Assembly: GCA_964484305.1 (NCBI GenBank)
Contig: CAZAEI010000001.1
Span: forward strand, 26,936 to 90,935
Origin: an uncultured archaeon
GTDB taxonomy: Archaea > Aenigmatarchaeota > Aenigmatarchaeia > QMZP01
DNA length: 64,000 bases
Direction of reading: 5' to 3'
Each line of letters opens with the position of its first letter. Position 1 is the first letter of the stretch. Below are positions 30,116-64,000 of the stretch, piece by piece. A model generated the notes under the pieces. That model worked only from the letters and a program-made list of their open reading frames with translations, did no database searches and had not been told where the DNA came from. The translations under genes were made by a program, and so were the position numbers.

Positions 30116-30140
30116 CATAACTTTTTGGAATAATGTCAGG
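30111..30140. terminator. hairpin with T5 run between convergent GH57 and GT3 genes
   Basis: cctgacat / aactttttggaataa / atgtcagg. The 8-bp stem encloses the GH57 stop codon, and an oligo-T run sits in the loop. Confidence 0.3.
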
Positions 30141-30276
30141 TACAACTAGCAAAGGACACTTTCCAATTTATTATGCCCTTTACTATAATTGTTGAGAGCA
30201 CAACCAGCAAACCAAATCCAAGCAGAGATTATTTATTTGGTTTACTACAGTGTTCCAAGGGAACAGTGCACTCAAA

Positions 30277-32133: not shown

Positions 32134-32196
32134 GCTTAATATTTGGCTCGGCTGGCTAATAAATCAGACTGACACGCGGTCTCATAAAGCCTGCAG

Positions 32197-32633
32197 GTGT
32201 CTATAGGGAAGGTTTATTATGCAAATAAGCCCTATCTTAACACGAGGGTTGCTGTTCGTGGGATGGGCGAGGCCAGGAGTAATGTAATACTGCTTTCTGT
32301 TTTCAGTTTCCTGCTCTGGGCCTCTCTTGGGGCACTGGCGCCGATAGAGTTCCTTTTCCTGGGTTCCCTGGTCGAAAATGTTGCCATAAGGGGCCTGATA
32401 TTGGGCATACCAGGTCTGGTCATCATGGTCTTTGCTCCATGTGCAATAAAAAATCTGTATACTTTGGCTATTCCTCCAGCCTGGGCTCACTGGGCGGCAT
32501 CATTGGCGCAGTCATATCCGGCTTTCTGGTATATTTTTTCGGGGTCGAGATGACCGTCCTGATGCTTGGCCTGTTTGTTCTGTTGCCGCCGATTCCCTTT
32601 CTGGCTGCCTACCTGCTGAAAGGGTTGCCCTGA
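32197..32633 (+). pseudogene. possible MFS-type transporter gene remnant split over two frames
   Basis: Two adjacent or overlapping ORFs in different frames (32197..32553 and 32439..32633) encode hydrophobic TM-like segments (..LGSLGGIIGAVISGFLVYFFGVEMTVLMLGLFVLLPP..). No full-length partner is present. Confidence 0.3.
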
Positions 32634-32648
32634 CTGTATATTGGACAG

Positions 32649-34583: not shown

Positions 34584-34602
34584 ATTATATTAGTGGTGCC
34601 TG

Positions 34603-35514: not shown

Positions 35515-35526
35515 TGCTCCTCTGCT

Positions 35527-36669: not shown

Positions 36670-36897
36670 ATGAAGCGGCAGGATGGCGACATAAAGGGAA
36701 GAATTCTTAAGCTTATCTCTAGGAAGCCATATGGTCTGAGCATTGAGGAGATTTCGAGAGAGCTGAAAATAAACAGGGCCACTACTGTAAAATATCTTGC
36801 GTTTCTGGAAGGCCAGGGGCGGATTCTTGTGAGGGAGCTGGGCAAGGCCAAGCTACACTATCCAAGGACGAGGAGGGTTGAGGCATGGCTGCTCTAG
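36670..36897 (+). CDS. small winged-helix transcriptional regulator
   Basis: 75 aa. Its pattern (GRILKLISRKPYGLSIEEISRELKINRATTVKYLAFLEGQGRIL) is a typical ArsR/TrmB-like wHTH. Its 3' end overlaps the giant ORF's start by 13 nt. Confidence 0.6.
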   Translation: MKRQDGDIKGRILKLISRKPYGLSIEEISRELKINRATTVKYLAFLEGQGRILVRELGKAKLHYPRTRRVEAWLL

Positions 36898-39800
36898 AGC
36901 TTTCCCCCGGAACGGCAACGCCAGGCAGGAGAATGAAGAGCAGCCTCAAGAGCTCAGCCGGCATTATAGGTCTGTTATCGCTGATTCTGGCCGTGGGGTG
37001 TGTCTGGCTGCTGGTGGTCAATACGGCAGTTTCCCAGAAGGGTGTCGAGATTGTCACCGATAAGGAGGCATATAAGCAGGGGGAAGTTGTATCTGCCTTC
37101 ATATCAGGCCCTGCCAACATCAGCTTCAGCCTGGATATATTCGAGCCGGACAACCAGAGCATATTCCAGCTAAGGAACGAGAGCCTCAATGAAGAGGGTG
37201 AATTCAATCTCTACATCATGGCATATGAGAAACCGGGCATGTATGAAATCATTGTCTGGAACGAGAACCTTGCATTATCATGCACATTCGATGTGCTGAG
37301 ACCGGAGGGTATGTGGGGAGTAAATGGCTCTGGGAACCAGACCCCTGAGAATAAGACTTCAGGAGAGATTAACATCACCCTGGATATGGGTAACCAGACT
37401 GATAATGAGACCGGGCAGGAGAACCAGGGTGTTGTGGACATAATTAAACAGGTTCTTGAGATTCCGGAGAACAGGAGCCTGACTGCTGGAATTCAGGAGA
37501 CAGTTAACCTCTCTGAAACAGACTCCAATGAGAGTCTTTCTGAGTGTTTCAGGGAAAACGTAACAGGACCTGTCGATAACGCCTCCCTCGAAGTTAACCT
37601 GACCCTGGATGAGTCTGTTGTTCTGAGATCTGAGTCGCTGGAGGAGCTTGTACAGGGCGAGGCTTTTGTGGGCAGGCCTGTGAGATGGGTGAAGAAGATA
37701 ATGATGCCTGTACCAAGCAACATAAAGGTAGAGATTCCTGAACATGCATTTAATGTGAGTGTCTCTAGGGTTGCTGGGGGGATGAGGCAGAGAATTGAGG
37801 AGCAGGGACTGAAGAGAGTCCATGATACCCTAGAGCTAGACAATGCCACAGAGGTGGAGGTTGAATACTTCACAGAGCCGCCACAAGTCATGGAAGACGT
37901 CATCTCACAATACAGGAAGAGGATAACAGTCTATTCTGACATGCACTATGAAAACGTCCTGGCCTGGACAGAGATAGAGGAATTCCCTGAGGACAGTATC
38001 AGCCTTTACTGGTTCAGAGACGGGGAGAGGGAGCTTGTCGGAAGTGTCGATTACATCGACAGCAACGGAAACGGTATGATAGACAGGCTGGAATGGGTTG
38101 TTCCGCACCTGAGCAACCAGACATATGAGGTGGATATAGCCATACTCAACGTCCAGAGCTATCCTTCACTCTACGGCAACTGGACCGTGATGTTCAGCAC
38201 GACCGGGCAAGCGAACCTGACCATCACTGCTGTTAACGGGACGTCATGGAGCGATTCAGTTGGGGATAATGAGATGATGTTCCTTGAAATCAGGTGTGGT
38301 GATGAGGTTCTCGAATATGAGTGGATAGACAACGGCCCCTACAACTCATCCGTATTCATCGAGGATTATTCCTGCAATGAAACGGGCCATGAAACCAGCA
38401 TGGTCCTAGATGCAGGCAAGCACATGCTAGAGTTCAGGTTCGGAAACCTTGTTGGATATGCCTACAACTCCCTGGGAAGCCCCGTGTTCGAGACATATTC
38501 GGAGGCAGGATCGCCCGGCAATGTGTATTCGGTTGACGTCGACCCGCCATCCGGGACAGAAGGGGGTGACCTGCTTCTGGCTGTCTTCACCCACGACAGC
38601 ACATCAGGAACGCTCAGCTCTCCTGGCGACTGGACTGACCTCATGAGCAGCACCAGCACAGACGGCAGCACCTTCCTCATATCATACAAGGTAGCAGGCA
38701 GCGACGAAACCGGACCCTACACGTTCTCGAGCACTGACACCGACCAGCTTGCAGTTGGTGTGGCAAGGTTCAGCAACGTCGATCCCAGCAACCCCATAAA
38801 CTGCCAGTCCAGCGTAAGCATAGGGAACAGCAATGCCCCGCAGGCCCTGGCATGCACGACTAACATGGACGAAACCCTCGTTGTCAGGATGATGGCCGCG
38901 GACGATGACGACTACGGCACCCCGGGCAACTATCCCGGGGGGCACACGGGCGCGTTCACCGTGCAGTCGACAGGGAGTTCTGGTGAAACCCACTGCGCAA
39001 TGGCATATACGGATCAGGCCCTGGCCGGCTCGACAGGGACAGCATCATTCAGCATGAGCGCAAGAGAGCAGTGGGGAACGCTCACCGTCGCCCTGACTCC
39101 CATAGACGTAACGCCGCCGAACATAACAGACGCCCGGTTCGAGCAGACCCTGGTCATCATGAACGATGCGATCCTGTTCAACGTCAGCGTGGATGACAAC
39201 AAGTCAAGCGTGGACAAGGTCATCGCAACCTTCAGATATCCCAACGACACAAGGGTTAACGTGACCATGAATCATGACAGCGGGCCCCAGCCCCCCTGGG
39301 ATTCCACTGACATGGAAAGCAAGGAGCGTCAGGCAAAGGCAATGGATTCCACCATGGCCGAGGCCAACTACGATTTCAGCACGGGTGGGGGAACCGACAA
39401 GTTCGGCTGGAGCCACAACAACGTCGATGCAGGAGAGAGCGTGCCTCCCTTCCAGTCAATAAGCCCATGGAACTACGTCTACACCCAGATGTACAGCGAG
39501 GCAGGCTATGCCGCCCTTGGTAGCATGGACCAGAGCTTTTATGCCTGCATTGACCCAGGCTTCGGGGATTATTCTGTTCTTGCGCTCGACTTCATTGGCA
39601 TTGCAGAAGACCCCTCGGACATCAATGAAATCAACATCTCGTGGATTGGATACAGGCAGACATCGAACTACATGAAGGTGATGCTCAGAAACCAGACAGA
39701 GGGGAGCTGGGATTACACGGAATGGGATATAACCTCAACCTCCTCGCCAGGAGAGTACCATGAATGGGTTCTGAGCGGTGAGGATTTCGAGAAGTATGTC

Positions 39801-42800
39801 GTGGATGGAAGGCTTCTCATGATGCTCACTGTTGATGACGAGACCAACCAGCAGTTCTGGACGGATTTCGTGAACCTCAATGTAAGCTACGGGAAGCCCG
39901 GGGTGGATGATGACGGCAACTCCTCGTGGAGGGAATATTCGTTCACGAGCGCGGACGATTTTGACAAGATTACCGCAATCGAAATCCAGACCGAGGTGAG
40001 CTACTATGACCCGAGGGGCTCATACACCGGGGGAAGCAGCCTCCCTGACCTGGAGGTGCAGGCATGGGACGGAGACAGCTATGAGCCGGTGTTTCTCTAT
40101 GACATCAGCAGCTTGATGGGGGACGAGACCTACAACACCACAGATACCAATTTCACGGAGAACATCACGGATTCTGCCATAATGGATGCCTGGGAAACTG
40201 CAGACAACAGGAGGATAAGAATCAGGGGAGTCTACATGGACATGAACGGCGGCTACAACGACACCATGAACTGGACAGGTGTGTGGGCAACGATACACTA
40301 CGAGAACACGAGCGGCTACTTCCTCTACAACTGGGCTGATACAGCATCACTCGGGATATACAACGTCACGGACATCTATGCCAATGACACCTACAACAAC
40401 GTAAACCACACGACCTACACTGACCTATATTTCGAGGTCGTGACTGCGCCACCAATATGGAGAAACCAGGGAACTAGTGAAATCGAGGATACCATAGAAC
40501 TCGGTGATTCAATGACACTGTATGCGCAGGGAAGCGATGACTTCGGCCTCTGGGAGGCCATCCTGGCAACGGATGAGAGCGGGGAGTGGGTAAACCACTC
40601 TGGCGTCTACGGCTCGCCAATGAATCTGGGCAATGTCACTGACTGGGTCTGGTCAAACTTCACCTGGAATAACGCATCCTTCCCGACAGGAGCAACGATT
40701 TCATGGAGGATATGGTACAAGGACAACACCTCGAACTGGAACGCCACCAACATCCTGACCTTCGACATTGTTGATACGACCCCGCCTGGCTATCAGTATG
40801 ACTCGGACAACTCATCCGGCGCTGCATCAGAGAAGGATACTGTATCGGCATCGGCTTACTGGAGCGATGTGGGTGATTTGGACTATGCAATTTTGAGGAG
40901 CAATGAGAGTGGAGGCTGGGTTAACACGAGCTATTACGGGTTTGGCGAAAATCCGGAGTATTCCAACTTCAGCATTGACACTACAGGGCATCCTGATGAA
41001 ACCATATGCTGGGTTATCTGGGCCAATGACACGAGTGGGAATTTGAATGATTCGATGAGTCAGCACTGCTTTGATGTGAGGGACACTGCTCCGCCGGAAT
41101 ATGAATGTGATTCGGATGATTCGGGCGGGAGCGTGGATGAGGAAGTGAATGTAAAGGCATCTGCATACTGGGATGACAGCCTGGATCTGGATTATGCGAT
41201 ATTGAGGAGCAACGAGACAAGTAGCTGGTTGAACACGAGCGAGTATGATTTCTTTTTGACGCCTGATTATTCCAACTTCACTATCGGCACTTCAGGTCAT
41301 CCCGGGGAAACTATATGCTGGGTTATCTGGGCCAACGACACTTCGGGGAACCTGAATGATTCAATGAGTCAGCATTGCTTTGATGTCAATGATGTAAGTC
41401 CGCCTACTTATATGTATGACCAGGATGACTCTGGTGGGGCAGTGGATGACGGGGAAACCGTTGGGGTATCTGCATACTGGGATGACAACCTCGAGCTGGA
41501 AACTGCCATGTTGAGGAGCAACGAGACCGGGGGCTGGGTGAACACTAGCGGGTATGAGTTCACGGGGACCCCTCAGTATTCGAACTTCAGCATTGACAGC
41601 AGCGATCATCCTGGGGAGACAATCTGCTGGGTTATCTGGGCCAATGACACCAGCGGGAATTTGAATGAGAGCATGGAGCAGCACTGTTTCTTTGTTAATG
41701 ATATCACGCCGCCTTCCTATCTGTATGATTTGGATAATTCGAGCGGGTCGGTTGATGATGGTGAGACTGTCCAGGCTTCGGCGTATTGGGATGATGACGT
41801 TGAATTGGACAGCGCTGTGCTGAGGAGTAATGAAACGGGTAGCTGGGTTAACACGAGTTATTATGGATTTGGTTCAACGCCTGGGTATTCGAACTTCAGT
41901 ATTGACAACAGTGGTCATCCTGGGGAGACAATCTGCTGGGTTATCTGGGCCAATGATACTTCGAGTAATTTGAATGTGAGTATGGGTCAGCACTGTTTCG
42001 ATGTCAGGGATGTGACGCCGCCTACGTATCTCTATGACCAGGATGACAGCGGGGGTCTGGCGACTGAGGGTCAGGTCGTGCAGGTTTCTGCTTACTGGGA
42101 TGATGACCTTGAACTGGAGAGTGCTGTGTTGAGGAGTAATGAAACCGGGGGCTGGTTGAACACGAGCTACTATGGGTTCACTGGTAAGCCTCAGTATTCG
42201 AACTTCTCGATTGACAGCAGTGGTCATCCTGGGGAGACAATATGTTGGATCATCTGGGCCAATGATACTTCGGGTAATTTGAATGGGAGTATGGGTCAGC
42301 ATTGCTTCTACGTAAACAAGCCGCCACAGATAAATTCTGCAGAGTTCAATCAGACCACGATAAACCAGTACGAGAGCGTGCTGCTCACCGTGAACGTGAC
42401 TGACCCGGATGGTGTGAGTATGGTCATAGCAACCTTCCAGTACCCTGATTTGAGCACGGTCAATACCACCCTTAGCCAAGATGCAGGGGACAACTATACA
42501 TACGAGTGGATCGACACGTCGCTTGCAGGGAACTACAACGTCACCATAGTGTATGCGAACGATGGCTTTGATAGCTGGAATTCCACCATATACACAACTC
42601 TGGGATTCGATGTAGTTGGTGATGCACCACCCACTTCCACGCTTAATGTGCCTGATAATGGGAATATAACCAGGACCACCACAACGGTTGTGTTCAACTG
42701 CAGCGGATACGATGAAGTCAACCTGATAAACGTGACGCTGTGGGGAGACTGGCTCGGCTGGCACGCAAACGAGACCAACACCTCAGGCTATGATGATGCT

Positions 42801-57800: not shown

Positions 57801-60800
57801 AGGGACGGGAGCTATGGCAGCGGCCAGAACTATGAGCTCTACAGTAGATGGACCACCCCGGATTCCGGTGAGGTCACGGTCTCGGGCCTGAGATTCTATG
57901 ATTCAGAGGCAAGCCTGTCGAGTAGCGAGAGCATAGAGGTTGCGCTTTACAATGAAAGCGGGGACAGAATAACTGAAATCGTTATCATAACAGGAACCGG
58001 TTCACAGGAATGGCTGACAGGGAAGCTGTCAACCACGGTGAATATCACGCTTGGTGAGAACTACACCATAGGTGTGGGGCCATCAGGCGGTTCAAGCTAT
58101 GCCATTGGCAGGGACACGAGTGCTGACTGCTCCAACTATCCCCCGACAGGGGCAGGAAGCCTGTACGAATCAGCGAGCGGTGGACTGAATGACCAGGTTC
58201 CCGGGAGCCAGCACTCCGATAAATTCAGTTTCTGGGGCATAGAGTACGAGGTCCCGGAAAAGGATGGAAACACGACATATTCCACATACCAGGATGTGGA
58301 TTCGGACCATGAAAGGGTGCTTAACATAACGGTTAAAATCGAGATTGACTCCTACAACCCGGAGGCCTCTGTAAACCAGTCAACAGGCGACCCTGACCTG
58401 GAAGTGGAGTTCTATGATGGAACCGGTTTCGTGAGCATAGGGGTGCTGAACCTGAACGAGAGCTATACAGGAGACACCCTGAACACCACCAATGCCAACT
58501 TCACCCTGACCACGACCGATTCCTCAATCATGGAGGCTTGGGAAACCGCGGATAACCAGGACCTCAGGATAAGGGGTATCTACATGGATTCTGTGAATTC
58601 CACACTTTACGATGAGATTAATTACACGAACGTGTGGGTCACCATCTACCATGAGCAGGAATTCCTTAACGATTCCTGGATGGAGATGACAGGGCAGGTC
58701 AACTGGAGCAATGTAACAAAGGTCGTGAACTCAACAGTCGGGGCAACGATTAAGTGGATTGTGTATGCCAACGACACCACTGACAACTGGAATGCTACGG
58801 ATGTCTTTGTTTATATAACGATAGAGGATACGGAGCCGCCCTACTACCTCTATGACCAGGACAACTCCTCGGGTTCGGTGGTGGTTGGGGACACCGTGCT
58901 GGCGTCCACCCTCTGGAACGACTCTATAAATGAGAATTCCCTCTCAACAGCCATATTGAGGACCAATAAAACAGGCTCCTTCGTCAATGAATCCTATTAC
59001 TCGTTCTCCACAAAGCCCGAATATTCGAACTTCAGCATTAACAGCACTGGGCATTTTGGCGAGACCATATGCTGGGTTATATGGGCAAATGACACTTCAG
59101 GGAATTTGAATTCAAGTATGGTTGAGCGCTGCTTTAATGTCGTTGACATCGAGGCCCCTGCATGGTACCAGAACCAGACCAGCATCGTATCAGTATACTC
59201 CCCGTCACAGCTGTCACTCTTCAACATAACCTGGGTTGATGAGGCAACATCGGTCCACACGGTTTATATAGAGGGGAATTGGTCTGGCTCTCCAGGGAAC
59301 TACACCATGTACATGGAGGGGGACGGGGTATACCAGCACAATCTTACCCTGCATGCTGGCAGCTTCTACTGGAGGTCCTGGGCGAACGACTCCGCAGGCA
59401 ACCTCAATGTCTCGGACACCTGGGAGTTCACTGTGTCCAAGGCAGACATCCTGGTCTGGTTGTTCCTGAACGGCACAGAAGGTGACTTCGGCATGACGTA
59501 CGGGGAGACATCCAATGCCAGCACCTATTCCTCGGCAGGCACGGTGCAGCTCTGGAGGAACGGGTCCCAGGTCGGGAACCCCGAGGTTGAGGTCTTGGGT
59601 GCTGGCTACTGGGAGTATCATGCCAATGCGACAGGTGACCAGAATTATACTGATAACTCCAGCGGGGTGACGTACTACCTGACAGTGGACCAGGCTGCCT
59701 CGTCAGCGGAACTCTATGTGAACGGCTCCAGGGACAACATGGCCCAGGGATATGGGGACAGTGTGAACGTGTCGGGTTACTGCGATTACGGCTCTGTGAG
59801 CCTGTGGAGGAATGAAAGCAGTGTGGCTAACCCGTACAGGGATGTGCTGGGCGCGGGATACTGGAACTTCACCGCGTACTGCTCAGGGGACGGCAACCAC
59901 ACCGGGAGCACGGAGCAGTGGTTCGTGACCGTGAACAGGGCATCCATGCCATTGTATCTGTATATAAACGACTCTGCAGACAACGTGACGCTCACCTATG
60001 GGAACACAACCAATGTGAGCGGGTACAAGGAATATGTAGAGGGTTCACTGGAGCTCCTGCTCAATGGCTCGGCAGGGAGCAATCCTGATATAGACAACCT
60101 GGGTACGGGTTACTGGAACTACACCCTGGTTTTTGACAAGACCCAGAACTACACTGCGAATTCAACAAGCCTGTTCATAACAATGAAGAAGAGGGCATCC
60201 CAAGCAACGCTCACGCTCCTGCCTGAGTCCCCTGTGGCTTATGACACATCCACCACTGCAACATGTGAAGTCACCAACCCCGAGGCAGCAGGCATTCTGT
60301 GGAGGAACGGCACGGACGTGAGCGGGGAGAATGGAACTGCAGTTACACTTGGAGCAGGATACTGGGAGTATGTTTGCAATGTCTCAGAGACAGGGAACTA
60401 CACATCTGCAGAGGACAGCTCGGGCTATACAGTGAACACGGCATCCTGCGGGATAGAACTCTACCTGAATTCAGGGGCTGTTAATCAGGACAACACAATA
60501 ATCTACGGGACCGATGCAAACGCAACAGCATACATCAATTTCACGCAATCTGTCTGGCATCTCGAGAGGAACGGAAGTGTCGTGGATTCAGGAACAGGCA
60601 GCATGCTTCAGGAGATAGAAGGTCTCGGGACCGGCTACTGGAACTACACCGCATTCTGGGACGGTAACGAGAACTGCACTAGCTGCCTTGAGATGTCCTT
60701 CCTCACCGTCCAGAAGGCGGTTTCGGGTACAGAGGTATACATAAACGGGTCAAGGGACAACCTCACCCAGACCTATGGGGAGAGTGTCAATGTTACTGCT

Positions 60801-63800
60801 TACTGTGACTATGGCTCAATAAGCCTGTGGAGGAACGATACTGAGATTGGGAGCCCTTACGGGGATGTGCTGGGCGCGGGATACTGGAACTTCACCGCGT
60901 ACTGCTCAGGGGACGGCAACCACACCGGGAGCACGGAGCAGTGGTTCGTGACCGTGGAGAAGGGGACCACATGGATAGGGCTTGAGGTGAGTCCCGAGGG
61001 GCCGGTAACCTATGAGACCCAGAGCACGGCTACCTGCCAGGTGAACAACACCGAGGTCTCTGCAGTGCTGTGGAGGAACGGCACGGACGTGAGCGGGGAG
61101 AACGGCAGCGCCGTGACGCTGGGTGCGGGGGGATGGGAGTACGTGTGCAACTGCTCGGAAACCCAGAACTACACCGCGGCGAGCAACACGAGTTATTACG
61201 TGGTTGATAAGTACCAGAAGGCTGTCGGGTTCTACCTGAATGGGAGCCAGGACAACCTGAGCATTGACTATCCGGATTCGGTCAATGCATCTGCCTACAC
61301 GGACAGGGGCTCGGTCACCCTCCTCATGAACGGCTCCTCTGTCGGAAATCCATACGAGGAGGTCATGACAGCAGGCTACACCTACAACTTCACTGCTGTA
61401 TCAGACGGGGACGACAATTACACAGTGGACACGGAGACCTTCTTTCTGGATGTCAACCAGGCTAGTTCGGAGATTGTCCTGATGCTGAATGGCTCTTCAG
61501 ATGACATCTATATAATAGGGGACGAGACCGTCAACCACACCGCCTACCTGAACGCTTCAGGGACGATATACATGTACATGAACGACAGCCTGATGCAATC
61601 GGGCTCGTCACCGCTCGTCAATATATCTGATTACCCGGATGTGGGGACATTCAATATTTCAGTCAACTATTCAGGGGATGTTAACCATACCGGGGCGTTT
61701 GATTTTCATCTTGTGAATGTTGTGTCAGGGGATGTTAAGCCCCCTGAAATTGAGATTGAGTCGCCGCTCAACGGCTCTTATCACAACATCACGTCTGTAT
61801 ATGCGAACGTTACAACGGATGAAACAGTAGACTGGTGCGGCTACTCCCTGGACGGGCAGGACGATGTGAGCATGAACAATGATTATGGAGACCACTGGAC
61901 TGACCTGCTCACAAGCCTTTCAGATGGGGAGCACAACCTGACCTTCTGGTGCAACGATACTGTAGGGAACATGAACTGGACTGAATCGATATTCTTCGTG
62001 GATTTGACAGAACCCTTTGTTGAGGTTCTCTATCCTGAGAATGTGAGCTATCCAGAGGACATGGGTGTGATAAACTACAGCTTCTCGGACAGTCTGGGAG
62101 GTTGCGGATGGTCTGCTTACTCCCTGAACAGTGGGAGCAACGTTTCCCTGGGCTGCGGGAATTATTCGGGTTCTGCCCTGGGTTCACAGCAGGGCCTGAA
62201 CAACCTTACTGTCTGGGCAAGGGACGAGGCATGGAACCTGAACCATTCCCTGGTCTTTTATACCTATGACAGCGTGCCTCCGCAGTATTCGGGCCTGAAG
62301 GAAAATGTTTCCAACCAGTCCAAGTATGCGCCGGTCAGGACCTACCAGTTCAACGTTACCTGGAGTGATGCTGTTTCATGGGTGGACACTGTCCTTATTA
62401 ACTGGGACGGGGTCAACTATACCAGCTCGTACAACACCTCCACGAAGTGGGTATTCGAGATAGACAGCCTCGCTGCAGGGGAGCATTCCTACTACTGGTT
62501 CGCAAACGACAGCCTGGGGAATGCGAACCAGACCGGGACCTTCACCTATGATGTGGTGAAGGCTGACAATGCGATATGGCTCTACCTGAACGGGTCTGGC
62601 CAGAACATCACGGCTGTCTACGGGGAGTCGGTCAATGCGAGCGCCTATGCGGAGCAGGGTTTGGTGGAGCTGTACAGGAACGACACCCCTGTGAGCAATC
62701 CTGAGGAGGAGGTCCTGCATGTGGGGGTGCACATATACAGGGCCTATGCACCGGGGAACCAGAACTACTCAAGCAATGAGACTGTTTTGAATGTAACTGT
62801 GGAGAAGGCCACCACAGAGATTGACCTTGTCCTAAGCCCCGGTTCCCCGGTGACATATGGGGTTCAGAGCACTGCCACCTGCCAGGTGAACAACACAGAG
62901 GTCTCTGCGGTGCTGTGGAGGAACGGAACAGATGTGAGCGGGGAGAACGGGACAGGGGTGACGCTGGGTGCGGGGGGATGGGAGTACGTGTGCAACTGCT
63001 CGGAAACCCAGAACTACACCGCGGCGAGCAACACGAGCTATTATGCGGTCAGCCAGGCAGACATACTGGTCTGGCTGTTCCTTAACGGGAGCGAAGGGAA
63101 TTTCGGGATTGGTTATGGGGAAACCTCGAATGCGAGCGCCTATACTGACTTCGGGACGGTTGAATTGTGGAGGAACGGGACGCAGGTGGGCAATCCCGAG
63201 GTAGAGACCCTAGGGGCAGGCCTCTGGGTCTACATTGCAAACACCACGGGGGATGACAATCACACGGCAAACGAGAGTGTCTGGAACCTTACTGTGTCAA
63301 AGATTGCATCCGCGATGACCCTGCTGCTGAACGGCACGGACGGGGATTTCAATGCCTACACATATGATTTCATCAACATCACCGTCTACATGAACCATGA
63401 CGGAAGCATCAGCCTCTACAGCAACAGGAGCCTTGCGGATTCCGGGCAGAGCCCGCTTGTGAACATAAGCAGATATACAGATGCAGGGAAGCTGAACATA
63501 ACGGCCAACTACTCCGGTGACGGCAACCACACACCTGCAGAGGCATGGCATATCCTCAATATCTCTTCTGAGACGGTGGCCCCCCTGTGGTATGACCAGA
63601 ACCAGACATCGGGGGGCGTCTATGTTAGCGTGCTCTTCAGGGGGGAATCCGCGAACCTCTCTGCATCATGGAGCAATGCCGCCCTTGACACGGCCTGGCT
63701 CGAGACAAACGAGACCGGGACCTGGGAGAACAAGTCAGCATACGGCTCGCCTAAGGAGATTACAGGCGAGGTTAATGAGAGTGTCTTCCAGTGGTCCAAC

Positions 63801-64000
63801 TACTCTGTTAATCCCGGCGTTAGCATGGCCTGGAGGATATATGCGAACGACACGTCAGGCAACCTCAACGCCACGGATATCATGAGCCTCGATGTGTGGG
63901 GATATGCCAATGTAAGCATAGGTTTGGATGCGGGGAGCGTCCTGAAGAACGACCCTCTTGCTGTCTCTTGCCTTGTCAGGGATTCGAACACAAGCCAGGA
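36885..64000 (+). CDS. giant secreted/surface repeat glycoprotein, 5' part only (>9,000 codons, open to window end)
   Basis: - **Open frame.** Frame 0 opens after the tga at 36879-36881 and is then free of stops to position 64000. It was checked codon by codon from 36885 to about 41010, and the remainder was read in triplets with conserved motifs recurring in frame.
- **Start.** The ATG at 36885 has an AGGAGG 7 nt upstream. The ATG at 36933 begins a classic signal peptide, MKSSLKSSAGIIGLLSLILAVGCVWLLVVNTAVSQ.
- **ORF track.** The supplied track contains no plus-strand ORF in this frame anywhere in 37-64 kb, and all minus-strand entries there are short antisense fragments.
- **Product.** An acidic, Asn/Ser/Thr/Trp/Tyr-rich, sequon-dense protein built from repeated modules. 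Confidence 0.85.
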   Translation, partial: MAALELSPGTATPGRRMKSSLKSSAGIIGLLSLILAVGCVWLLVVNTAVSQKGVEIVTDKEAYKQGEVVSAFISGPANISFSLDIFEPDNQSIFQLRNESLNEEGEFNLYIMAYEKPGMYEIIVWNENLALSCTFDVLRPEGMWGVNGSGNQTPENKTSGEINITLDMGNQTDNETGQENQGVVDIIKQVLEIPENRSLTAGIQETVNLSETDSNESLSECFRENVTGPVDNASLEVNLTLDESVVLRSESLEELVQGEAFVGRPVRWVKKIMMPVPSNIKVEIPEHAFNVSVSRVAGGMRQRIEEQGLKRVHDTLELDNATEVEVEYFTEPPQVMEDVISQYRKRITVYSDMHYENVLAWTEIEEFPEDSISLYWFRDGERELVGSVDYIDSNGNGMIDRLEWVVPHLSNQTYEVDIAILNVQSYPSLYGNWTVMFSTTGQANLTITAVNGTSWSDSVGDNEMMFLEIRCGDEVLEYEWIDNGPYNSSVFIEDYSCNETGHETSMVLDAGKHMLEFRFGNLVGYAYNSLGSPVFETYSEAGSPGNVYSVDVDPPSGTEGGDLLLAVFTHDSTSGTLSSPGDWTDLMSSTSTDGSTFLISYKVAGSDETGPYTFSSTDTDQLAVGVARFSNVDPSNPINCQSSVSIGNSNAPQALACTTNMDETLVVRMMAADDDDYGTPGNYPGGHTGAFTVQSTGSSGETHCAMAYTDQALAGSTGTASFSMSAREQWGTLTVALTPIDVTPPNITDARFEQTLVIMNDAILFNVSVDDNKSSVDKVIATFRYPNDTRVNVTMNHDSGPQPPWDSTDMESKERQAKAMDSTMAEANYDFSTGGGTDKFGWSHNNVDAGESVPPFQSISPWNYVYTQMYSEAGYAALGSMDQSFYACIDPGFGDYSVLALDFIGIAEDPSDINEINISWIGYRQTSNYMKVMLRNQTEGSWDYTEWDITSTSSPGEYHEWVLSGEDFEKYVVDGRLLMMLTVDDETNQQFWTDFVNLNVSYGKPGVDDDGNSSWREYSFTSADDFDKITAIEIQTEVSYYDPRGSYTGGSSLPDLEVQAWDGDSYEPVFLYDISSLMGDETYNTTDTNFTENITDSAIMDAWETADNRRIRIRGVYMDMNGGYNDTMNWTGVWATIHYENTSGYFLYNWADTASLGIYNVTDIYANDTYNNVNHTTYTDLYFEVVTAPPIWRNQGTSEIEDTIELGDSMTLYAQGSDDFGLWEAILATDESGEWVNHSGVYGSPMNLGNVTDWVWSNFTWNNASFPTGATISWRIWYKDNTSNWNATNILTFDIVDTTPPGYQYDSDNSSGAASEKDTVSASAYWSDVGDLDYAILRSNESGGWVNTSYYGFGENPEYSNFSIDTTGHPDETICWVIWANDTSGNLNDSMSQHCFDVRDTAPPEYECDSDDSGGSVDEEVNVKASAYWDDSLDLDYAILRSNETSSWLNTSEYDFFLTPDYSNFTIGTSGHPGETICWVIWANDTSGNLNDSMSQHCFDVNDVSPPTYMYDQDDSGGAVDDGETVGVSAYWDDNLELETAMLRSNETGGWVNTSGYEFTGTPQYSNFSIDSSDHPGETICWVIWANDTSGNLNESMEQHCFFVNDITPPSYLYDLDNSSGSVDDGETVQASAYWDDDVELDSAVLRSNETGSWVNTSYYGFGSTPGYSNFSIDNSGHPGETICWVIWANDTSSNLNVSMGQHCFDVRDVTPPTYLYDQDDSGGLATEGQVVQVSAYWDDDLELESAVLRSNETGGWLNTSYYGFTGKPQYSNFSIDSSGHPGETICWIIWANDTSGNLNGSMGQHCFYVNKPPQINSAEFNQTTINQYESVLLTVNVTDPDGVSMVIATFQYPDLSTVNTTLSQDAGDNYTYEWIDTSLAGNYNVTIVYANDGFDSWNSTIYTTLGFDVVGDAPPTSTLNVPDNGNITRTTTTVVFNCSGYDEVNLINVTLWGDWLGWHANETNTSGYDDADYMFTKTIPDGDYVWNCYVCDSLDQCSFAPENYTFSVNRYPYYENDVDNSSGAVDDGEAVGASAYWYDPYGDLDTAILRSNETGSWVNSSYYGFSSTPEYSNFTIDTTGNPNETICWVIWVNDTVGNLNSSMGQHCFFVNDVNSPQFSSAQTNHTSVTKGAVLLEMTVNDDVSVNSVLFDINSTNYSYSGVSGDVYEYYFDCQVFGSGTWHWNATWAIDGSGNQNYTMGEGLPQWFECDADAPSVGGEQVDVGASNSVVRLNLTVTDNFGVDTVVFELDETGAGLGVNNYTQTGSSGDEWYLVYDCTSTGTVYWNGVYANDTAGNYDSNLSVGLSFYCDLDEPGWSGQGQNSSNPVAGEDVSVHAYWTDNYLLGSALLETNRSGSRVNESYLSLSGAGDWSNFTVDTTGHDGKTVAWRIYANDTFGNLNATDDMSFDVRHASTSGILYQNESADVTGITQTDYKHYNITLEFNNTGNEFAYSASLSLSLPGGWSAYPAVHECSDVGSGQACGQDFNVTVPAGTGPGDYYVYGYANWSNPDSSKGSAENDTVFSVESNPVLEVPETGLSDTVSHNNEEVVGSFTANSTGNDNVVGIEFNCTGGNLSYDWVEYDPVNITNLAAGYEQSVEVSVTVPAGQAPGEYGCVINVSSANGGQDSLNLNTTVPVDDSWTRSPATCSKSAAVNSTGTVCQVVIQNTGNVLLNVTIEPVGMTNYTNASKSMFLVDAQGSDSFNINYNTTGGVVGYENVTTYNISVNGTPYYQLTEVTLIITQVPWWNSEWTHRKQILISESMNVERVNDVIMVNVTDLDGKISSCENEIRVISIETGENVEVTRQILDGDDSSWCYVVFLGNVSASASDEKQYYVYYNNSQASAPSYADPMDSYTDSGGWYMFSGLIEWNYSWSGGRGGGPMRSRITTPEGQEVLSSTTYDDDSFQNTDTFISFTTDVDGPVFKQFTLTSSLRGTQVMKVYAYQNWYEINNTYTCASGCGDYHIVGIGGTDTTGRGWYDFSSTTGTGEQTATNFFFVDDGANNWGVGVAVSGVPDQPFDSGTASDLDFHTSVDGWYINNDPYTGGYPFWIFTTDYGTTGSNTTATKVKNPPSASEGGEERLIIPEIESIRVYNVTGLGDTHSGGSLVVSGLNESYNVTLNETGHGYYRVEINVSVSADWNISVLTRAYHEGLDSGWQVASNDIWYSMGAGDYTGGTLSAGKVTWDTVQDGSVEAGGHVTFYYVLNASGVPGQAGVHFVINETNYERANGLSVDGDCSTFMVEDVNSPLWRYQGSNATVLEAGSSILLYAQARDYVGLDYAVLVTNESGSWVNQSGVYDSPMDMQDAVAWVWSNFTWQNSSVADGTVVGWKVWYNDTSGNLNSTDESTFLVISPPKWSDNRTYPLSPATYAPGQAYMFNITWTGYGIDDVTFEFDGVNYTYKSGQVSKDGDEYYITLTDLSVGSYSYRWYANNTAAQWNSTDQSTYYVEKSSTSIGLLLNGSSDRTYHYGETANLTADLDVSGKDIDIWTNLSGSYELWDSGPGPLENITVLGYGLGYYNVTANFSGDDNYTASYDSHTLTLIGWSSISWDSPDGGTGTPGDVIELGCLVSDANTSSLIGNYPVTFYNVTGSGESEIGVNYTNSSGQAVWYWDTSGLPAGAYYPKCNITDNETLLYNETDENEGNTTYYLVTLGTPVLTVETPDLLIGKGNPGDNATVSCSIDCSGGSCLGLQLGLQYENASGWHWIGNDGNLEINHTNPKDCGDAPSCSDTWDIFGKVNGSFNLRCNATASTPLESNINSGSNVLEIYTGSLSIESWTPASSPYDLSIYDAFDIDPVIRCTAPEGTRAGCGDVLMYARTNQTGSPATDPISGSTDIRLESGSVEQYYGSQYPGSDGGYYEIPFSAITVNMTVGGDAGGTARLYDVKVNSSDADVDEVDPSDRVAVGHTGQITIEMYDVSSTIDEGFDIIYNISCSGYRCLDVELWARYNATGSDADTLAPVSPSPAVFNVSQQPVRTLSMSAGESQIAMTISAGAGSSPGEWKIDLFGNSSYAETADEDPTDGVLKLTSVSITADLASLSPSNIMEGGNSAASGYCECAGACTNTVIYVQFSDGDWKNIPTDISEELSSNVTSYFIGSLSGTSGTYEFNLTGLVGGNYSVRVRCDSTDDADNSYNITLELDDYPDFSGFAVNSSLLYSGQAARFNVSIQDEAGVTYANFTINGVTYDAVQGSGNEWYYDWVCSASDADVDWTYAGANDTEGYWNDTSVISVSTECDAQAPTITGPVINDSSTVNLGTWVRVNASISDPEGHLNTVLLMVDRPTSSDYNITPNVNGDEYYYEFELDETGQWRFEFFANDTGNQVSTDYAEDGLSNEYIDVQDIESPVISGEQVNTSVSNGWVRLNVTATDNVGVDTVVFELDETGVGLGVNNYTQTGSSGDEWYYEYQCTASGTAYWNEVYANDSAGNYDSNMSVGLSFYCDMDEPEWSGQGQNESNPVSGDAVSVYSYWTDNNELESAVLKTNSSGSWVNESYLGLSGASGWSNFTVDATGHDSETIAWRIYVNDTAGNLNVTADMSFNVRYASTSGILYQNESVDVSGITQSASMDYNITLEFNNTGNEVAYSTELSLSLPSGWSAYPSLYACGDVESGQSCKQDFNVTVPAGTSPGDYYVYGYANWTNPDSSLGSAENQTTFSVESSPILDVPETGLADTVSHGTEETVGTFTANSTGNDDVTGIEFNCTDGNLSYEWVEYEPVNITTLGAGSEQAVQVNVTVPAGQVPGEYSCVINVSSANGGQDGLNLNVTVPVDDSWTRSPATCSKSVTVNETGLVCQVVTENTGNVLLNATIEPVGMTNYTNASETMLLIGAQGSDSFNINYNTTGGFVGYENVTTYNISVNGTPYYQTVEVTLRIVKPIWWNSYWNYKQRLNITNSNDTDTLIENYTINLALDTASLVSLGKLMVNGSDLRIVYYNGSEYTELDRINTTPFNTASTTILFRLQKNVSAGDSDTSYYVYYGNPAASDPPTEESNIYALWRDFDSDTVDQQPPGWSLAEDVTALNVRDEGCYSPSQSLDIDASANTYAWITSPGLYGNDYIMEARVNYTASNTRHGIAGRASSSGTYALILYTGGVPAPGLRLSRISYTGGENVIVTDTTTSPYDNIWYNVKLLMYGTSIKGKFWNVTESEPSGWQVDETDSNIASGSVGVYSYSNDDGYIDDLSVRYYLEPEPTASFLGEERLIIPEIESIRVYNVTGLGDTHSGGSLVVSGLNESYNVTLNETGHGYYRIEINISVSADWNLSVLTKAYHEGLDSGWEVDTTNDVWYSMGAGDYTGGTLSAGKVTWDTVQDGSVDAGGHVTFYYVLNATGVPGEEGVHFVINEANYERANGLSVDDDYSTIRVDDVTPPTYLYDGDNSSGSVNDGETVEASAYWDDGVGLDYATLSSNETGSWVNSSYYDFVGTPGYSNFSIDSSGHPGETICWVIWANDTSGNLNGSMGQHCFDVNDVTPPYYQYDQDDLSGAVDDGETVDVSAYWDDATSSLSTAVMRSNETGSWVNTSYFQFTGKPQYSNFSVDSSGHPGETICWVIWANDTSGNLNGCMGQHCFDVSDVTPPYYIYDQDDSSGVVDDGDTVQVSAYWDDAISSLDSAVLRSNETGSWVNSSYYDFVGTPGYSNFSIDSSGHPGETICWVIWANDTSGNLNGSMGQHCFDVNDVTPPSYLYDQDNSSGAVDDGGTVEVSAYWNDDVELESAVLRSNETGSWVNTSYYDFVGTPEYSNFSIDTTGHPNETICWVIWANDTSGNLNSSMGQHCFDVRDDTPPQFMDAQTNYTSITNQALELNITVTDDIGVSGVWFDINGTNYSYDSSSGDYYYYYFDCQVFGSGMWHWNATWTDDVSGNLNYTMGEGLPQWFECDVDYPYYSQDVDNSSGSVQIGEIVNMSAYWQDGYGSLDTALLRTNQTGSWTDEQDYSFASTPEQVMFMFDTTGHLDETICWVIWSNDTVGNLNNSMGQHCFDVGDSIPPTYMYDQDNSSGLLTEGYSVEASAYWNDNLELETAVLRSNETGSWVNSSYYDFVGTPGYSNFSVDSTEHAGQTVCWVIWANDTSGNLNSSMGQHCFDVNKPPQINSAEFNQTTINQYESVLLTVNVTDSDGVSMVIATFQYPDLGTLNVTLSHDVGDNYTYEWTDTSVAGTYNVTVVYANDTFDRWNSSIYTSLSFEVVGDAPPTSTLNAPANGNITRTTTTVVFNCSGYDEVDLVNVSLYGNWSGGWHENETNTSGYDASDYMFTKTIPDGDYVWNCYVCDSIGQCSFAPENYTFSVNRYPYYENDADNSSGAVNDGETVEASAYWDDPHGDLDTAILRSNETGSWVNTSYYGFGSTPEYSNFTIDTTGHPNETICWVIWVNDTIGNFNSSMGQHCFDVSDVSPPYYVYDEDNSSGAVDDGETVEASAYWDDDVELESAVLRSNETGSWVNSSYFDFTGKPQYSNFSVDSSGHPGETICWVIWANDTSGNLNGSMEQHCFDVGDVSPPSYLYDQDNSSGAVDDGETVEASAYWDDDVELESAVLRSNETGSWVNTSYYGFGSTPDYSNFSIDSTDHPGETICWVIWANDTSGNLNSSIGQHCFDVSDVTPPAYLYDQDDSGGAVDDGDTMQVSAYWNDDLELDSAVLRSNETGSWVNSSYFQFAGAPQYSNFSVDSTGHFGETVCWVIWANDTSGNLNSSMGQHCFDVVDNTPPVYQYDGDDSSGEIESGDAVEVSAYWNDTASGLGTAALRTNESGSWAARDYHPFSAAPEYSNFTMQITDHVDETICWVIWANDTVGNLNDSMGQHCFDVADTTPPVWSQNSTDSTVADSLVEHRLYWEDAGGLAGYIFSFDNCIGSFVNDSWIPMTGPANWSNVTKYISDTVGCTVRWRVYANDTKGQWNDTGIISYQTTEDNPPYWYDNSTNSSLAGRAIQHSVKWTEDSELSGYIFSWHNGANWTLESDKEVGTGTIQIRLNVTENVDVPTSCRDGSYGSGQNYELYSRWTTPDSGEVTVSGLRFYDSEASLSSSESIEVALYNESGDRITEIVIITGTGSQEWLTGKLSTTVNITLGENYTIGVGPSGGSSYAIGRDTSADCSNYPPTGAGSLYESASGGLNDQVPGSQHSDKFSFWGIEYEVPEKDGNTTYSTYQDVDSDHERVLNITVKIEIDSYNPEASVNQSTGDPDLEVEFYDGTGFVSIGVLNLNESYTGDTLNTTNANFTLTTTDSSIMEAWETADNQDLRIRGIYMDSVNSTLYDEINYTNVWVTIYHEQEFLNDSWMEMTGQVNWSNVTKVVNSTVGATIKWIVYANDTTDNWNATDVFVYITIEDTEPPYYLYDQDNSSGSVVVGDTVLASTLWNDSINENSLSTAILRTNKTGSFVNESYYSFSTKPEYSNFSINSTGHFGETICWVIWANDTSGNLNSSMVERCFNVVDIEAPAWYQNQTSIVSVYSPSQLSLFNITWVDEATSVHTVYIEGNWSGSPGNYTMYMEGDGVYQHNLTLHAGSFYWRSWANDSAGNLNVSDTWEFTVSKADILVWLFLNGTEGDFGMTYGETSNASTYSSAGTVQLWRNGSQVGNPEVEVLGAGYWEYHANATGDQNYTDNSSGVTYYLTVDQAASSAELYVNGSRDNMAQGYGDSVNVSGYCDYGSVSLWRNESSVANPYRDVLGAGYWNFTAYCSGDGNHTGSTEQWFVTVNRASMPLYLYINDSADNVTLTYGNTTNVSGYKEYVEGSLELLLNGSAGSNPDIDNLGTGYWNYTLVFDKTQNYTANSTSLFITMKKRASQATLTLLPESPVAYDTSTTATCEVTNPEAAGILWRNGTDVSGENGTAVTLGAGYWEYVCNVSETGNYTSAEDSSGYTVNTASCGIELYLNSGAVNQDNTIIYGTDANATAYINFTQSVWHLERNGSVVDSGTGSMLQEIEGLGTGYWNYTAFWDGNENCTSCLEMSFLTVQKAVSGTEVYINGSRDNLTQTYGESVNVTAYCDYGSISLWRNDTEIGSPYGDVLGAGYWNFTAYCSGDGNHTGSTEQWFVTVEKGTTWIGLEVSPEGPVTYETQSTATCQVNNTEVSAVLWRNGTDVSGENGSAVTLGAGGWEYVCNCSETQNYTAASNTSYYVVDKYQKAVGFYLNGSQDNLSIDYPDSVNASAYTDRGSVTLLMNGSSVGNPYEEVMTAGYTYNFTAVSDGDDNYTVDTETFFLDVNQASSEIVLMLNGSSDDIYIIGDETVNHTAYLNASGTIYMYMNDSLMQSGSSPLVNISDYPDVGTFNISVNYSGDVNHTGAFDFHLVNVVSGDVKPPEIEIESPLNGSYHNITSVYANVTTDETVDWCGYSLDGQDDVSMNNDYGDHWTDLLTSLSDGEHNLTFWCNDTVGNMNWTESIFFVDLTEPFVEVLYPENVSYPEDMGVINYSFSDSLGGCGWSAYSLNSGSNVSLGCGNYSGSALGSQQGLNNLTVWARDEAWNLNHSLVFYTYDSVPPQYSGLKENVSNQSKYAPVRTYQFNVTWSDAVSWVDTVLINWDGVNYTSSYNTSTKWVFEIDSLAAGEHSYYWFANDSLGNANQTGTFTYDVVKADNAIWLYLNGSGQNITAVYGESVNASAYAEQGLVELYRNDTPVSNPEEEVLHVGVHIYRAYAPGNQNYSSNETVLNVTVEKATTEIDLVLSPGSPVTYGVQSTATCQVNNTEVSAVLWRNGTDVSGENGTGVTLGAGGWEYVCNCSETQNYTAASNTSYYAVSQADILVWLFLNGSEGNFGIGYGETSNASAYTDFGTVELWRNGTQVGNPEVETLGAGLWVYIANTTGDDNHTANESVWNLTVSKIASAMTLLLNGTDGDFNAYTYDFINITVYMNHDGSISLYSNRSLADSGQSPLVNISRYTDAGKLNITANYSGDGNHTPAEAWHILNISSETVAPLWYDQNQTSGGVYVSVLFRGESANLSASWSNAALDTAWLETNETGTWENKSAYGSPKEITGEVNESVFQWSNYSVNPGVSMAWRIYANDTSGNLNATDIMSLDVWGYANVSIGLDAGSVLKNDPLAVSCLVRDSNTSQ
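40776..42320 (+). repeat. tandem array A1: five 309-bp (103-aa) coding repeats inside the giant ORF
   Basis: The unit is xPPxYxYDxDxSSGxVDDGETVxASAYWDDxLELxSAxLRSNETGSWVNTSYYxFxxTPxYSNFSIDSxGHPGETICWVIWANDTSGNLNxSMxQHCFDVxD. TGC/TGT codons of the CWVIW motif sit at 41007, 41316, 41625, 41934 and 42243. Copies are roughly 75-85 % identical. A sixth copy lies at about 42900-43210. Confidence 0.8.
46120..46600 (+). repeat. ~480-bp near-identical intragenic duplicate (partner at 52483-52960)
   Basis: The first ~170 nt are identical, starting gaggaaaggctcatcatccctgagatagaatcgataagggtgtacaacgtgaccggactgggtgacactcattcaggagggagtctggtggtgtctggcctgaacgag. Identity then drops to about 90 %. The offset of 6363 nt is a multiple of 3. 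Confidence 0.85.
52483..52960 (+). repeat. partner copy of the 46120-46600 near-identical duplicate
   Basis: See the 46120-46600 feature. It encodes GEERLIIPEIESIRVYNVTGLGDTHSGGSLVVSGLNESYNVTLNETGHGYY... Confidence 0.85.
52975..54215 (+). repeat. tandem array A2: four 309-312-bp copies of the 103-aa module
   Basis: CWVIW codons sit at 53208, 53520, 53832 and 54141. Two more copies follow at about 54500-55130. Confidence 0.8.
55740..57275 (+). repeat. tandem array A3: five further copies of the 103-aa module
   Basis: CWVIW codons sit at 55962, 56271, 56580, 56889 and 57201. Divergent relatives of the module follow up to about 57.8 kb, and one more canonical copy lies at about 58840-59150. 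Confidence 0.8.
59400..63500 (+). repeat. second repeat family (~75-85-aa 'LxLNGS...YGESVNxSAY...LWRNG...NP...LGAGYWNYTA...GDxNYT' modules) in the C-terminal-ward part of the giant ORF
   Basis: Near-identical pairs are visible:
- 59780-59940 with 60800-60960
- 60990-61200 with 62840-63050
- 59440-59600 with 63055-63210 (about 80 % identity). Confidence 0.7.

Follow-up and report, generated by a model that had tools for sequence, protein, structure and literature searches.

The question addressed here is whether a stop-free frame of more than 27 kb found in an archaeal contig is one gene and, if so, what kind of protein it encodes. The frame occupies the distal part of the analyzed window, a 64,000-nt stretch of the contig CAZAEI010000001.1 from an uncultured archaeon (assembly GCA_964484305.1, positions 26,936 to 90,935 of the forward strand). 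In view of codon usage, internal divergence and recovery in other assemblies, it is highly probable that the frame constitutes a single real gene encoding a giant exported protein composed of beta-sandwich repeats. Positions below are those of the window, and amino acids are numbered from the ATG codon at 36885.

The Open Frame and Its Coding Status

According to the computational translation of the window, the frame contains no stops from 36882 to 64000 on the plus strand (27,122 nt, 9,038 codons from ATG 36885); the final stop codon before its opening is TGA at 36879–36881. The two other plus frames accumulate 471 and 652 stops over the same DNA (0.052–0.072 per codon). An opening of 27,122 nt cannot arise by chance, the probability being ~e^-480, and the next-longest open stretch elsewhere in the window, in any other frame, is 3,357 nt. 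The stop-free frame up to the window edge that had been described in an initial annotation of this DNA was thereby borne out. The same annotation had emphasized the absence of this open reading frame (ORF) from a program-made ORF list. It is indeed absent, but this is a listing artefact that carries no biological meaning, because such lists omit ORFs running off the end of a window. Lists that drop frames at the window edge hide genes of exactly this kind.

The relative synonymous codon usage of the giant ORF correlates with that of twelve neighbouring genes (r = 0.90), as compared with r ~0 for the shifted frames, and its GC content is 0.64 at the third codon positions versus 0.45 at the second ones. 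In addition, the ratio of nonsynonymous to synonymous substitution rates (dN/dS) was 0.11–0.35 for nine pairs of internal paralogous segments, with dS of ~1–2, which is near saturation. These values point to an old age of the repeats and to selection on the protein that this frame encodes; the repeats are also far too diverged to be collapsed copies. Together with the recovery of the locus in other assemblies described below, codon usage and dN/dS support the earlier claim of a single, genuinely coding giant ORF.

As for the start site, a GGAGG sequence is placed 8 nt upstream of ATG 36885, in agreement with the Shine–Dalgarno-preceded start proposed earlier, and the gene calls of the JGI and Logan contigs begin at this codon too. 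A second ATG, at 36933, is located just ahead of the sole hydrophobic segment. In the other frames and strands between 37.3 and 64 kb, just three ORFs of at least 150 aa were found, and the longest of them (296 aa, antisense) has no Pfam match. Antisense ORFs across the giant gene were rejected as genes and are considered shadows of the coding frame, as the initial annotation had suggested.

Contiguity and Probable Full Length of the Gene

The same locus was detected on contigs from four other samples (JGI 3300031355, 3300031356 and 3300031551; Logan SRR9707468) with 99.97–99.99% identity. Separate metagenome assemblies reproduce aa 1–5468; on the contig Ga0315548_1000870, an open gene call of 5,468 residues breaks off at window position 53290, exactly at the final base of the first of two copies of a 191-nt repeat. 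For the downstream part, searching 1.84 billion representative proteins without a profile identified the JGI protein P0195 (4,980 aa, 5'-truncated), which corresponds to aa 6578–9038 with one substitution (Q6885R) and extends 2,519 residues past the window end. Its contig has a length of 20,729 nt, of which ~5.8 kb remains beyond the gene, and two relatives end, at their extreme C-termini, in sequence homologous to the final 250 aa of P0195. Since P0195 overlaps aa 6578–9038 and then adds 2,519 aa, we infer a complete protein of 11,557 aa (~1.26 MDa). The two statements of the initial annotation on size hold accordingly: no end is reached within the window, the gene apparently continuing for 2,519 codons, and the protein belongs to the size class of halomucin, whose 9,159 aa it would exceed. 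Among genome or metagenome contigs, no exact match to the 60-mer 63941–64000 was found, and a search of metagenome contigs with the last 600 aa of the window protein returned distant relatives alone (30–48% identity), two of which are ordinary genes of ~800 aa.

A rival explanation is that the ORF is an assembly artefact, that is, a chimera or collapse in which two or more shorter paralogous genes were joined via the repeat arrays. Short-read contigs do break within the repeats at 41036, 53290 and 56616, beside repeated k-mers, and the longest exact DNA repeats reach 191, 152 and 95 nt. Two further points count against the reconstruction given above: aa 5469–6577, within array 2 of the repeat designated A below, are supported by the present contig alone, with no second assembly, and the 2,519-aa extension with its stop is known as a protein record, not as DNA. 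However, the repeat copies are merely 50–84% identical and their synonymous divergence is saturated, which makes collapse unlikely, and an independent contig is colinear across both copies of the 152-nt repeat. The upstream fragment lacks a stop and the downstream fragment lacks a start, and both break in the same array, which matches the prediction for fragmentation of a single gene. As for the 191-nt repeat (copies at 53100 and 53724, inside array 2), a mis-join there would alter the copy number by two in-frame units alone and leave the conclusion unchanged. An artefactual origin of the ORF is therefore considered very unlikely.

Two other features of the assemblies were observed. Two independent JGI contigs stop at the identical position 45818 inside the giant gene, where no repeated 17-mer is present within 120 nt; strain variation or a drop in coverage is possible. 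The copies of the 152-nt exact repeat (46119–46270 and 52473–52624) lie inside segmental duplicates with 65–80% identity (aa 2200–3350 versus aa 4340–5460), and this repeat may be a gene-conversion tract.

Domain Architecture

The features of the giant gene and of the gene located immediately upstream are listed in Table 1.

Table 1. Features of the giant gene and its upstream neighbour in the window.
Feature	Position	Strand	Evidence or remark
75-aa winged helix-turn-helix (wHTH) gene	36670..36897	+	Pfam HTH_11, HTH_5, HTH_IclR, HTH_24
GGAGG (36872–36876) followed by ATG 36885; alternative ATG 36933	36872..36887	+	Sequence reading
Giant ORF, first 9,038 codons	36885..64000	+	No stops, codon usage, dN/dS; exits window end
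Sole hydrophobic segment, aa 24–46, preceded by R/K residues	36954..37022	+	Kyte–Doolittle scan; signal-anchor or signal peptide
Weak MG2-like beta-sandwich (aa 56–135), then N/S/T/E-rich, sequon-dense linker (aa 136–252)	37050..37640	+	MG2 E = 0.015, sub-threshold
Conserved juxtamembrane module, aa 253–528, 2–3 beta-sandwiches	37641..38468	+	Homology
Lineage-specific region, aa 540–1181	38502..40427	+	3 homologues in 5.8 billion proteins; no Pfam match
Array 1 of repeat A, 12 copies, aa 1182–2408	40428..44108	+	
NEW3 (NPCBM-associated) beta-sandwich pair, aa 2409–2700	44109..44984	+	PF10633, 59–62 bits (cut-off 24.4), 2 stretches
DUF2341-like start (WWNSEW, aa 2748) and ~240 aa unassigned	45102..46154	+	Paralogue of aa 4870–5000; no Pfam match
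Two A copies and one B (Big_3_5-like) copy, aa 3241–3548	46605..47528	+	Big_3_5 E = 2e-5, sub-threshold
Cys-rich unique region, aa 3549–4137	47529..49295	+	Sequence
Four A-type copies, aa 4138–4540	49296..50504	+	
Second NEW3 pair, aa 4541–4870	50505..51494	+	PF10633, 63.2 bits; dN/dS 0.22
DUF2341-like module (aa 4877–5012) and probable ConA-like/DUF1080 jelly-roll (aa 5013–5200)	51513..52484	+	
Array 2 of repeat A, 15 copies, aa 5360–6894	52962..57566	+	Holds 191-nt exact repeat
DUF4082-containing region, aa 6950–7220	57732..58544	+	PF13313, 29.6 bits (cut-off 28.4), aa 6978–7073
Three A-type copies, aa 7218–7515	58536..59429	+	
Array 1 of 84-aa repeat B, 9 copies, aa 7489–8244	59349..61616	+	LWRNG/YWNYTA units, Ig-like, Big_3_5/Big_13-type
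A-like copies (aa 8279–8555, 8893–9002) flanking B array 2 (4 copies, aa 8529–8858)	61719..63890	+	

The 275-aa juxtamembrane module is common to more than 120 DPANN-type proteins with 35–55% identity and has no match in Pfam, NCBIfam or PDB sequences. Part of the lineage-specific region that follows it is duplicated near the C-terminus (aa 10712–11199, 49–66% identity). The Cys-rich region shows no internal repeats, external homologues or Pfam match.

Both repeats named in the initial annotation were recovered. The two-Cys 103-aa repeat (repeat A, TPP...AND(T/S)GN) has 37 well-defined copies and ~42 hidden Markov model (HMM) matches in the window, and 49 HMM matches in the full 11,557-aa protein. 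The repeat with LWRNG and YWNYTA motifs (repeat B) is an 84-aa unit (LGAGYWNYTA...LWRNGS) with 14 good copies at aa 7489–8244, 8529–8858 and 3421–3548. The structural model of repeat A is a seven-strand sandwich (predicted local distance difference test score 90.8), closest to bacterial Ig, FN3-like and PKD modules. The consensus of repeat B resembles Big_3_5 (PF16640), with a best window score of 25.5 bits against a cut-off of 35.5, and its homologues carry precomputed Big_13 (PF19077) assignments; the region of B array 1 is matched by 3,805 representative proteins. A sequence search of solved structures using the whole protein and the profiles A1, A2 and A3 gave no significant match, the best being an Ig domain of Kit (E = 0.007). 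Repeat A and the juxtamembrane module are missing from curated domain libraries, and models for both would improve the annotation of thousands of metagenomic proteins.

Modules of other types are interspersed with the repeats. Two stretches in each of two segments match NEW3 (PF10633) with 59–63 bits, passing the gathering cut-off, and self-BLAST shows that the second pair is paralogous to aa 2409–2740 (70–80% identity). The DUF2341/LamG-like modules reported in the initial annotation were confirmed in part. The WWNxxW motif is present at aa 2748 and aa 4879, but the DUF2341 (PF10102) match in the window (aa 4925–5012, 20.1 bits, E = 9e-4) is below the cut-off of 23.4, and Pfam scans gave no Laminin_G_3 (PF13385) match inside the window; the latter domain is located past its end, at aa 9461–9613 (70.1 bits, cut-off 27.6). 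The tail past the window additionally contains a Pfam-significant DUF2341 (48.4 bits), a ConA-like 3keto-disac_hyd domain and further copies of repeat A. The DUF2341-like module of the window is 50% identical to aa 9990–10123 of the tail, the copies being linked transitively by BLAST, and the jelly-roll and the 3keto-disac_hyd segment of the tail are 25% identical across 200 aa. Pfam and NCBIfam scans of the 11,557 aa revealed no catalytic, protease, nuclease, RTX, dockerin or PGF-CTERM feature, and the NCBIfam scan gave nothing meaningful.

Acidity, Probable Membrane Topology and Probable Glycosylation

A Kyte–Doolittle scan of both the 9,038 and the 11,557 aa detected one hydrophobic segment, a 23-residue stretch at aa 24–46. 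The initial annotation had taken it for a canonical signal peptide following ATG 36933; this is plausible, but homologues use the segment as a signal-anchor. The topology was surveyed in 109 complete relatives with the juxtamembrane module. The transmembrane segment (TM) is placed inside the first 40 residues in 68 of them, as in the giant protein, and after a cytoplasmic region of 40–270 aa in the other 41; any later TM is present in 15 only. The cytoplasmic regions of the 41 relatives contain a recurrent MVYKKYIKRGGKxYGPYYY motif, coiled coils or a helix-turn-helix (HTH) domain. A C-terminal TM or archaeosortase-type anchor had been expected in the initial annotation; this expectation failed, as the C-terminus (...STLYIEGVEEGEGA), read on the condition that P0195 is 3'-complete, has no hydrophobic segment, and the PGF motif, TM helix and basic tail of archaeosortase/PGF-CTERM substrates are absent from it. 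Since the TM of the relatives follows cytoplasmic domains and the C-terminus has no hydrophobic segment, N-terminal anchoring is favoured: the segment seemingly acts as a signal-anchor in the family, and the giant protein would be tethered N-terminally with an N-in, C-out orientation.

Two kinds of N-terminal extension recur in relatives such as P0086, P0098, P0099, P0104, P0140, P0153 and P0166. In many module-bearing DPANN proteins, a conserved ~35-aa cytoplasmic motif, MVYKKYIKRGGKxYGPYYYESYR...YLG, precedes the TM; others begin with a 90–130-aa coiled-coil 'KKYK...EYE...QW..YY' domain.

The description of the protein as acidic and sequon-saturated was supported by counts. The window protein contains 1,230 D+E versus 271 K+R residues (pI <=4.05) and 477 NxS/T sequons versus 146 +/- 9 in composition-preserving shuffles, a 3.3-fold enrichment. 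The sequon density is 5.3 per 100 aa, compared with less than 1 per 100 aa in the cytoplasmic neighbours. As the pI of these neighbours is 5–10, a halophile explanation for the acidity was rejected. The sequon enrichment and the presence of the oligosaccharyltransferase gene AglB in the window suggest heavy N-glycosylation of the giant protein.

The Upstream wHTH Gene

The wHTH gene overlaps the ATG of the giant ORF by 13 nt in a different frame, as it does in the JGI and Logan gene calls. Its product is 37–39% identical, over its full length, to the N-terminal domains of the relatives P0124 and P0136, in which HTH, basic linker, TM and the conserved module are combined in one polypeptide with ToxR-like topology. 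A programmed frameshift joining HTH and the giant ORF was considered and rejected, as the overlap contains no slippery heptamer. The split of HTH and the giant ORF is real in this lineage, because the overlap has no slippery site and the locus is reproduced at 99.97–99.99% identity in four other assemblies. The comparison points to gene fission in this lineage from a ToxR-like ancestral topology and suggests that the HTH regulator and the surface protein are linked evolutionarily. The wHTH gene is probably co-transcribed with the giant gene and may regulate it or act with its protein.

In ToxR/CadC-like regulators, the wHTH, a single TM and an extracytoplasmic domain are united in one polypeptide; in the giant protein this unity is lacking, the HTH being a separate overlapping ORF. 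A bolder proposal, which we regard as quite doubtful, is that the giant protein and the wHTH form a split membrane-tethered ToxR-like system widespread in DPANN-type archaea, in which contact of the fibril on the outside would be coupled to gene regulation inside the cell. Such a system may consist of a cytoplasmic head, a single TM, the 275-aa module and a variable extracellular adhesin, the head being the HTH domain of P0124 and P0136 or some other small domain, as in ~40 relatives. If this is true, the module would represent a new domain family by which the system could be recognized.

Organism and Gene Neighbourhood

Archaeal markers of the window include AglB/STT3, diphthamide synthase, RNA polymerase subunit L, class V fructose-1,6-bisphosphate aldolase/phosphatase and HMG-CoA reductase; SecD/F, phosphoenolpyruvate (PEP) synthase, triosephosphate isomerase and a set of glycogen genes are also encoded. 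The closest PEP synthases belong to metagenome-assembled genomes of uncultured archaea (81% and 69% identity), followed by those of Woesearchaeota, Iainarchaeum and Altiarchaeales (54–56%). The named homologues of the modules of the giant protein are overwhelmingly from DPANN archaea, namely, Nanoarchaeota, Woese-, Pace-, Aenigmat-, Micr- and Altiarchaeota, and DPANN affiliation of the organism is probable. The PEP synthase was also found to be about as close (52–56%) to enzymes of the Candidate Phyla Radiation (CPR)/Patescibacteria and other bacteria as to DPANN enzymes, which hints at inter-domain transfer among small-celled lineages.

A compact glycogen/sugar cluster at 26544–36417 comprises a GT4 or starch-synthase-like gene, GH57, a eukaryote-type glycogen synthase (PF05693), a GDE_C amylo-alpha-1,6-glucosidase-like gene, a PfkB kinase and an ATP-grasp-like ORF, with the genes for PEP synthase, class V fructose-1,6-bisphosphatase and triosephosphate isomerase nearby. 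It resembles the storage-carbohydrate metabolism of nanohaloarchaea (PMC7443923). Approximately 1.3 kb downstream of AglB (6644–9085), an ORF of 1,111 aa (10382–13717, plus strand) encodes a protein of pI <=4.05 that has 5.5 sequons per 100 aa and combines a signal peptide with a C-terminal TM (aa 972–1008) and a basic tail. No Pfam family matches it, and it is unrelated to the giant protein; it is likely an S-layer-type surface glycoprotein. Rfam and tRNA scans of the window gave no matches.

Proposed Function and Alternative Explanations

Taken as a whole, the architecture makes it fairly probable that the protein is an N-anchored, glycosylated fibril with an adhesive, glycan-binding role. 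It would be exported through Sec, for which SecD/F is encoded in the same window, and remain tethered by its single N-terminal hydrophobic segment in the N-in, C-out orientation suggested by the homologues. It would be heavily N-glycosylated, and AglB is also encoded in the window. The membrane-proximal base is a conserved pilin/adhesin-like beta-sandwich module, as judged from homology and a confident model, and ~100 Ig/FN3-like sandwiches would serve as an extender; at ~3.5–4.5 nm each, their extended length would be ~0.3–0.45 um. Lectin-type modules (NEW3, DUF2341 with LamG/ConA-like domains, DUF4082) are interspersed in the fibril and concentrated distally, and could bind carbohydrates. 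The most likely role would be to attach the cell to glycans, which may be carried by another cell, possibly a host, or by particles. As a concrete and well-delimited candidate, the giant protein may show how small archaea reach partners or substrates and hold on to them.

The same size, acidity and sequon density might suit a protective or structural glycoprotein coat, that is, a released or loosely attached hydrated acidic matrix like that of halomucin, a secreted 9,159-aa protein found around cells (PMC4378361). Such a coat would fit the lack of a C-terminal anchor, and the sequence AVS|Q that follows the hydrophobic segment could be a cleavage site. However, the N-terminal segment of the relatives is a signal-anchor behind cytoplasmic domains, the modules are ordered Ig-like and lectin domains and not low-complexity mucin-like sequence, and the non-acidic proteome of the neighbours argues against a haloarchaeal context of desiccation or salt; a coat is accordingly thought unlikely. 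Sugar-related modules might also indicate a scaffold that captures polysaccharides for nutrients, either binding polymeric carbohydrates or docking enzymes in the manner of a cellulosome, given that NEW3 domains are typical of glycosidases, that ConA-like and 3-keto-disaccharide-hydrolase-like domains are present, and that glycogen and sugar metabolism genes are located nearby. Against this, no glycoside hydrolase, lyase, dockerin or cohesin family was found by Pfam or NCBIfam, the cohesin matches obtained are generic beta-sandwich similarity (6–13% identity), and the neighbouring sugar genes encode cytoplasmic enzymes of glycogen metabolism and gluconeogenesis. The scaffold explanation is improbable.

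The adhesive fibril has its own difficulties. If the segment aa 24–46 were cleaved, the protein would be released, since no other anchor is present. Approximately 2,000 aa have no fold or family match (aa 540–1181, 2850–3090 and 3549–4137) and could hide an activity. The link to DPANN is indirect, as bacterial PEP synthases show an identity similar to that of the archaeal ones at 54–56%. Finally, the window contains HMG-CoA reductase, a geranylgeranyl-reductase-like flavoprotein and the genes of gluconeogenesis and glycogen metabolism; with such lipid-synthesis and carbohydrate genes, the organism may not be an obligate episymbiont.

Comparison with Known Systems

Bacterial giant adhesins, such as the RTX adhesin MpIBP, LapA, SiiE and Ebh, combine an anchor with a long extender of Ig-like domains and with ligand-binding modules placed distally. 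The giant protein is alike in logic, with one anchored end, tens of tandem Ig-like domains as the extender and sugar-binding modules along the chain and toward its far end. It differs in that its repeats are diverged (50–84% identity) rather than near-identical and in the archaeal Sec route of export; no RTX repeats (HemolysinCabind or related), type I secretion signal, LPXTG or bacterial retention module were found in it. Assignment to RTX adhesins or PGF-CTERM substrates was rejected, as their defining features are lacking. The protein was likewise rejected as an archaeal S-layer glycoprotein, because such glycoproteins are of moderate size, with a signal peptide and often a C-terminal TM anchor, and it differs from them in size and topology; the ORF at 10382–13717 is a better candidate.

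Halomucin of Haloquadratum walsbyi (9,159 aa) is secreted and surrounds the cells (PMC4378361). Compared by description, the two proteins share size class, an N-terminal export signal and an extracellular glycoprotein-like character. In contrast to halomucin, the giant protein is modular (Ig and lectin domains) and not mucin-like, and the organism encoding it is not a salt-in halophile, as the neighbouring proteins are not acidic; halomucin was not among the named matches of the homologue searches.

SPEARE proteins of Nanohaloarchaeota reach 8,553 aa, and their extracellular part was proposed to function in attachment (PMC6642349). Like them, the protein is giant and mostly extracellular, with at least one LamG and adhesion domains, a single TM and a DPANN context. 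Unlike the SPEARE TM, which is located near the C-terminus and followed by a cytoplasmic C-terminal region, its TM is N-terminal and no such region is present. In Pfam and NCBIfam scans of the 11,557 aa, no peptidase family corresponding to the SPEARE serine protease and no toxin, type III restriction-enzyme or helicase domains were detected. Membership was therefore rejected on the protease, nuclease and C-terminal TM features.

The role suggested here for the giant protein also matches that proposed for the large sequon-rich LamG/ConA proteins of DPANN archaea, which are host-attachment candidates in, e.g., Ca. Nanohalobium (PMC7443923) and Ca. Mancarchaeum Mia14 (PMC5498576). The giant protein shares with them lectin-like domains, many N-glycosylation sites, organism-specific sequence and a background of glycogen metabolism and gluconeogenesis. 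It is much larger and is known here from sequence alone, and its organism apparently keeps lipid-synthesis genes.

As for length, halomucin (PMC4378361) and the SPEARE proteins (PMC6642349) have long been cited as the largest in archaea; archaeal proteins of more than 10,000 aa have already been reported and are rare, being mostly from Asgard archaea (bioRxiv 10.1101/2023.11.21.568195). With an inferred 11,557 aa, the giant protein exceeds both halomucin and the largest SPEARE and would be among these few. If the genome is ~1 Mb, as assumed here because this is typical for DPANN, the gene would take a few percent of it.

The initial annotation had stated that the module make-up could not be placed in a described family, which did not hold. 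A functionally unexplained class of huge archaeal proteins (at least 5,000 aa), in which Laminin_G_3 and Big_3_5 predominate, has been described (PMC11573180); the giant protein shares with it archaeal origin, size, Laminin_G_3 (in the tail) and LamG/ConA-like domains. Relatives as long as 7,289 aa contain A- and B-type units, and one of them, P0214, also has the N-terminal module. DPANN relatives such as MFC1768800.1 of Nanoarchaeota (5,701 aa) and MBW3015441.1 of Woesearchaeota (4,095 aa) are annotated as 'Ig-like domain-containing' or hypothetical proteins. The giant protein is ~1.6–2 times longer than the largest relatives retrieved; a separate homologue search returned no match above ~1,900 aa and did not recover the protein itself. 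Unlike the relatives of this class, it has LamG near aa 9,460 and not at the N-terminus, and it contains lineage-specific regions with almost no homologues. The giant protein thus adds a new and unusually large member to a class already known, that of huge LamG/Ig surface proteins in archaea.

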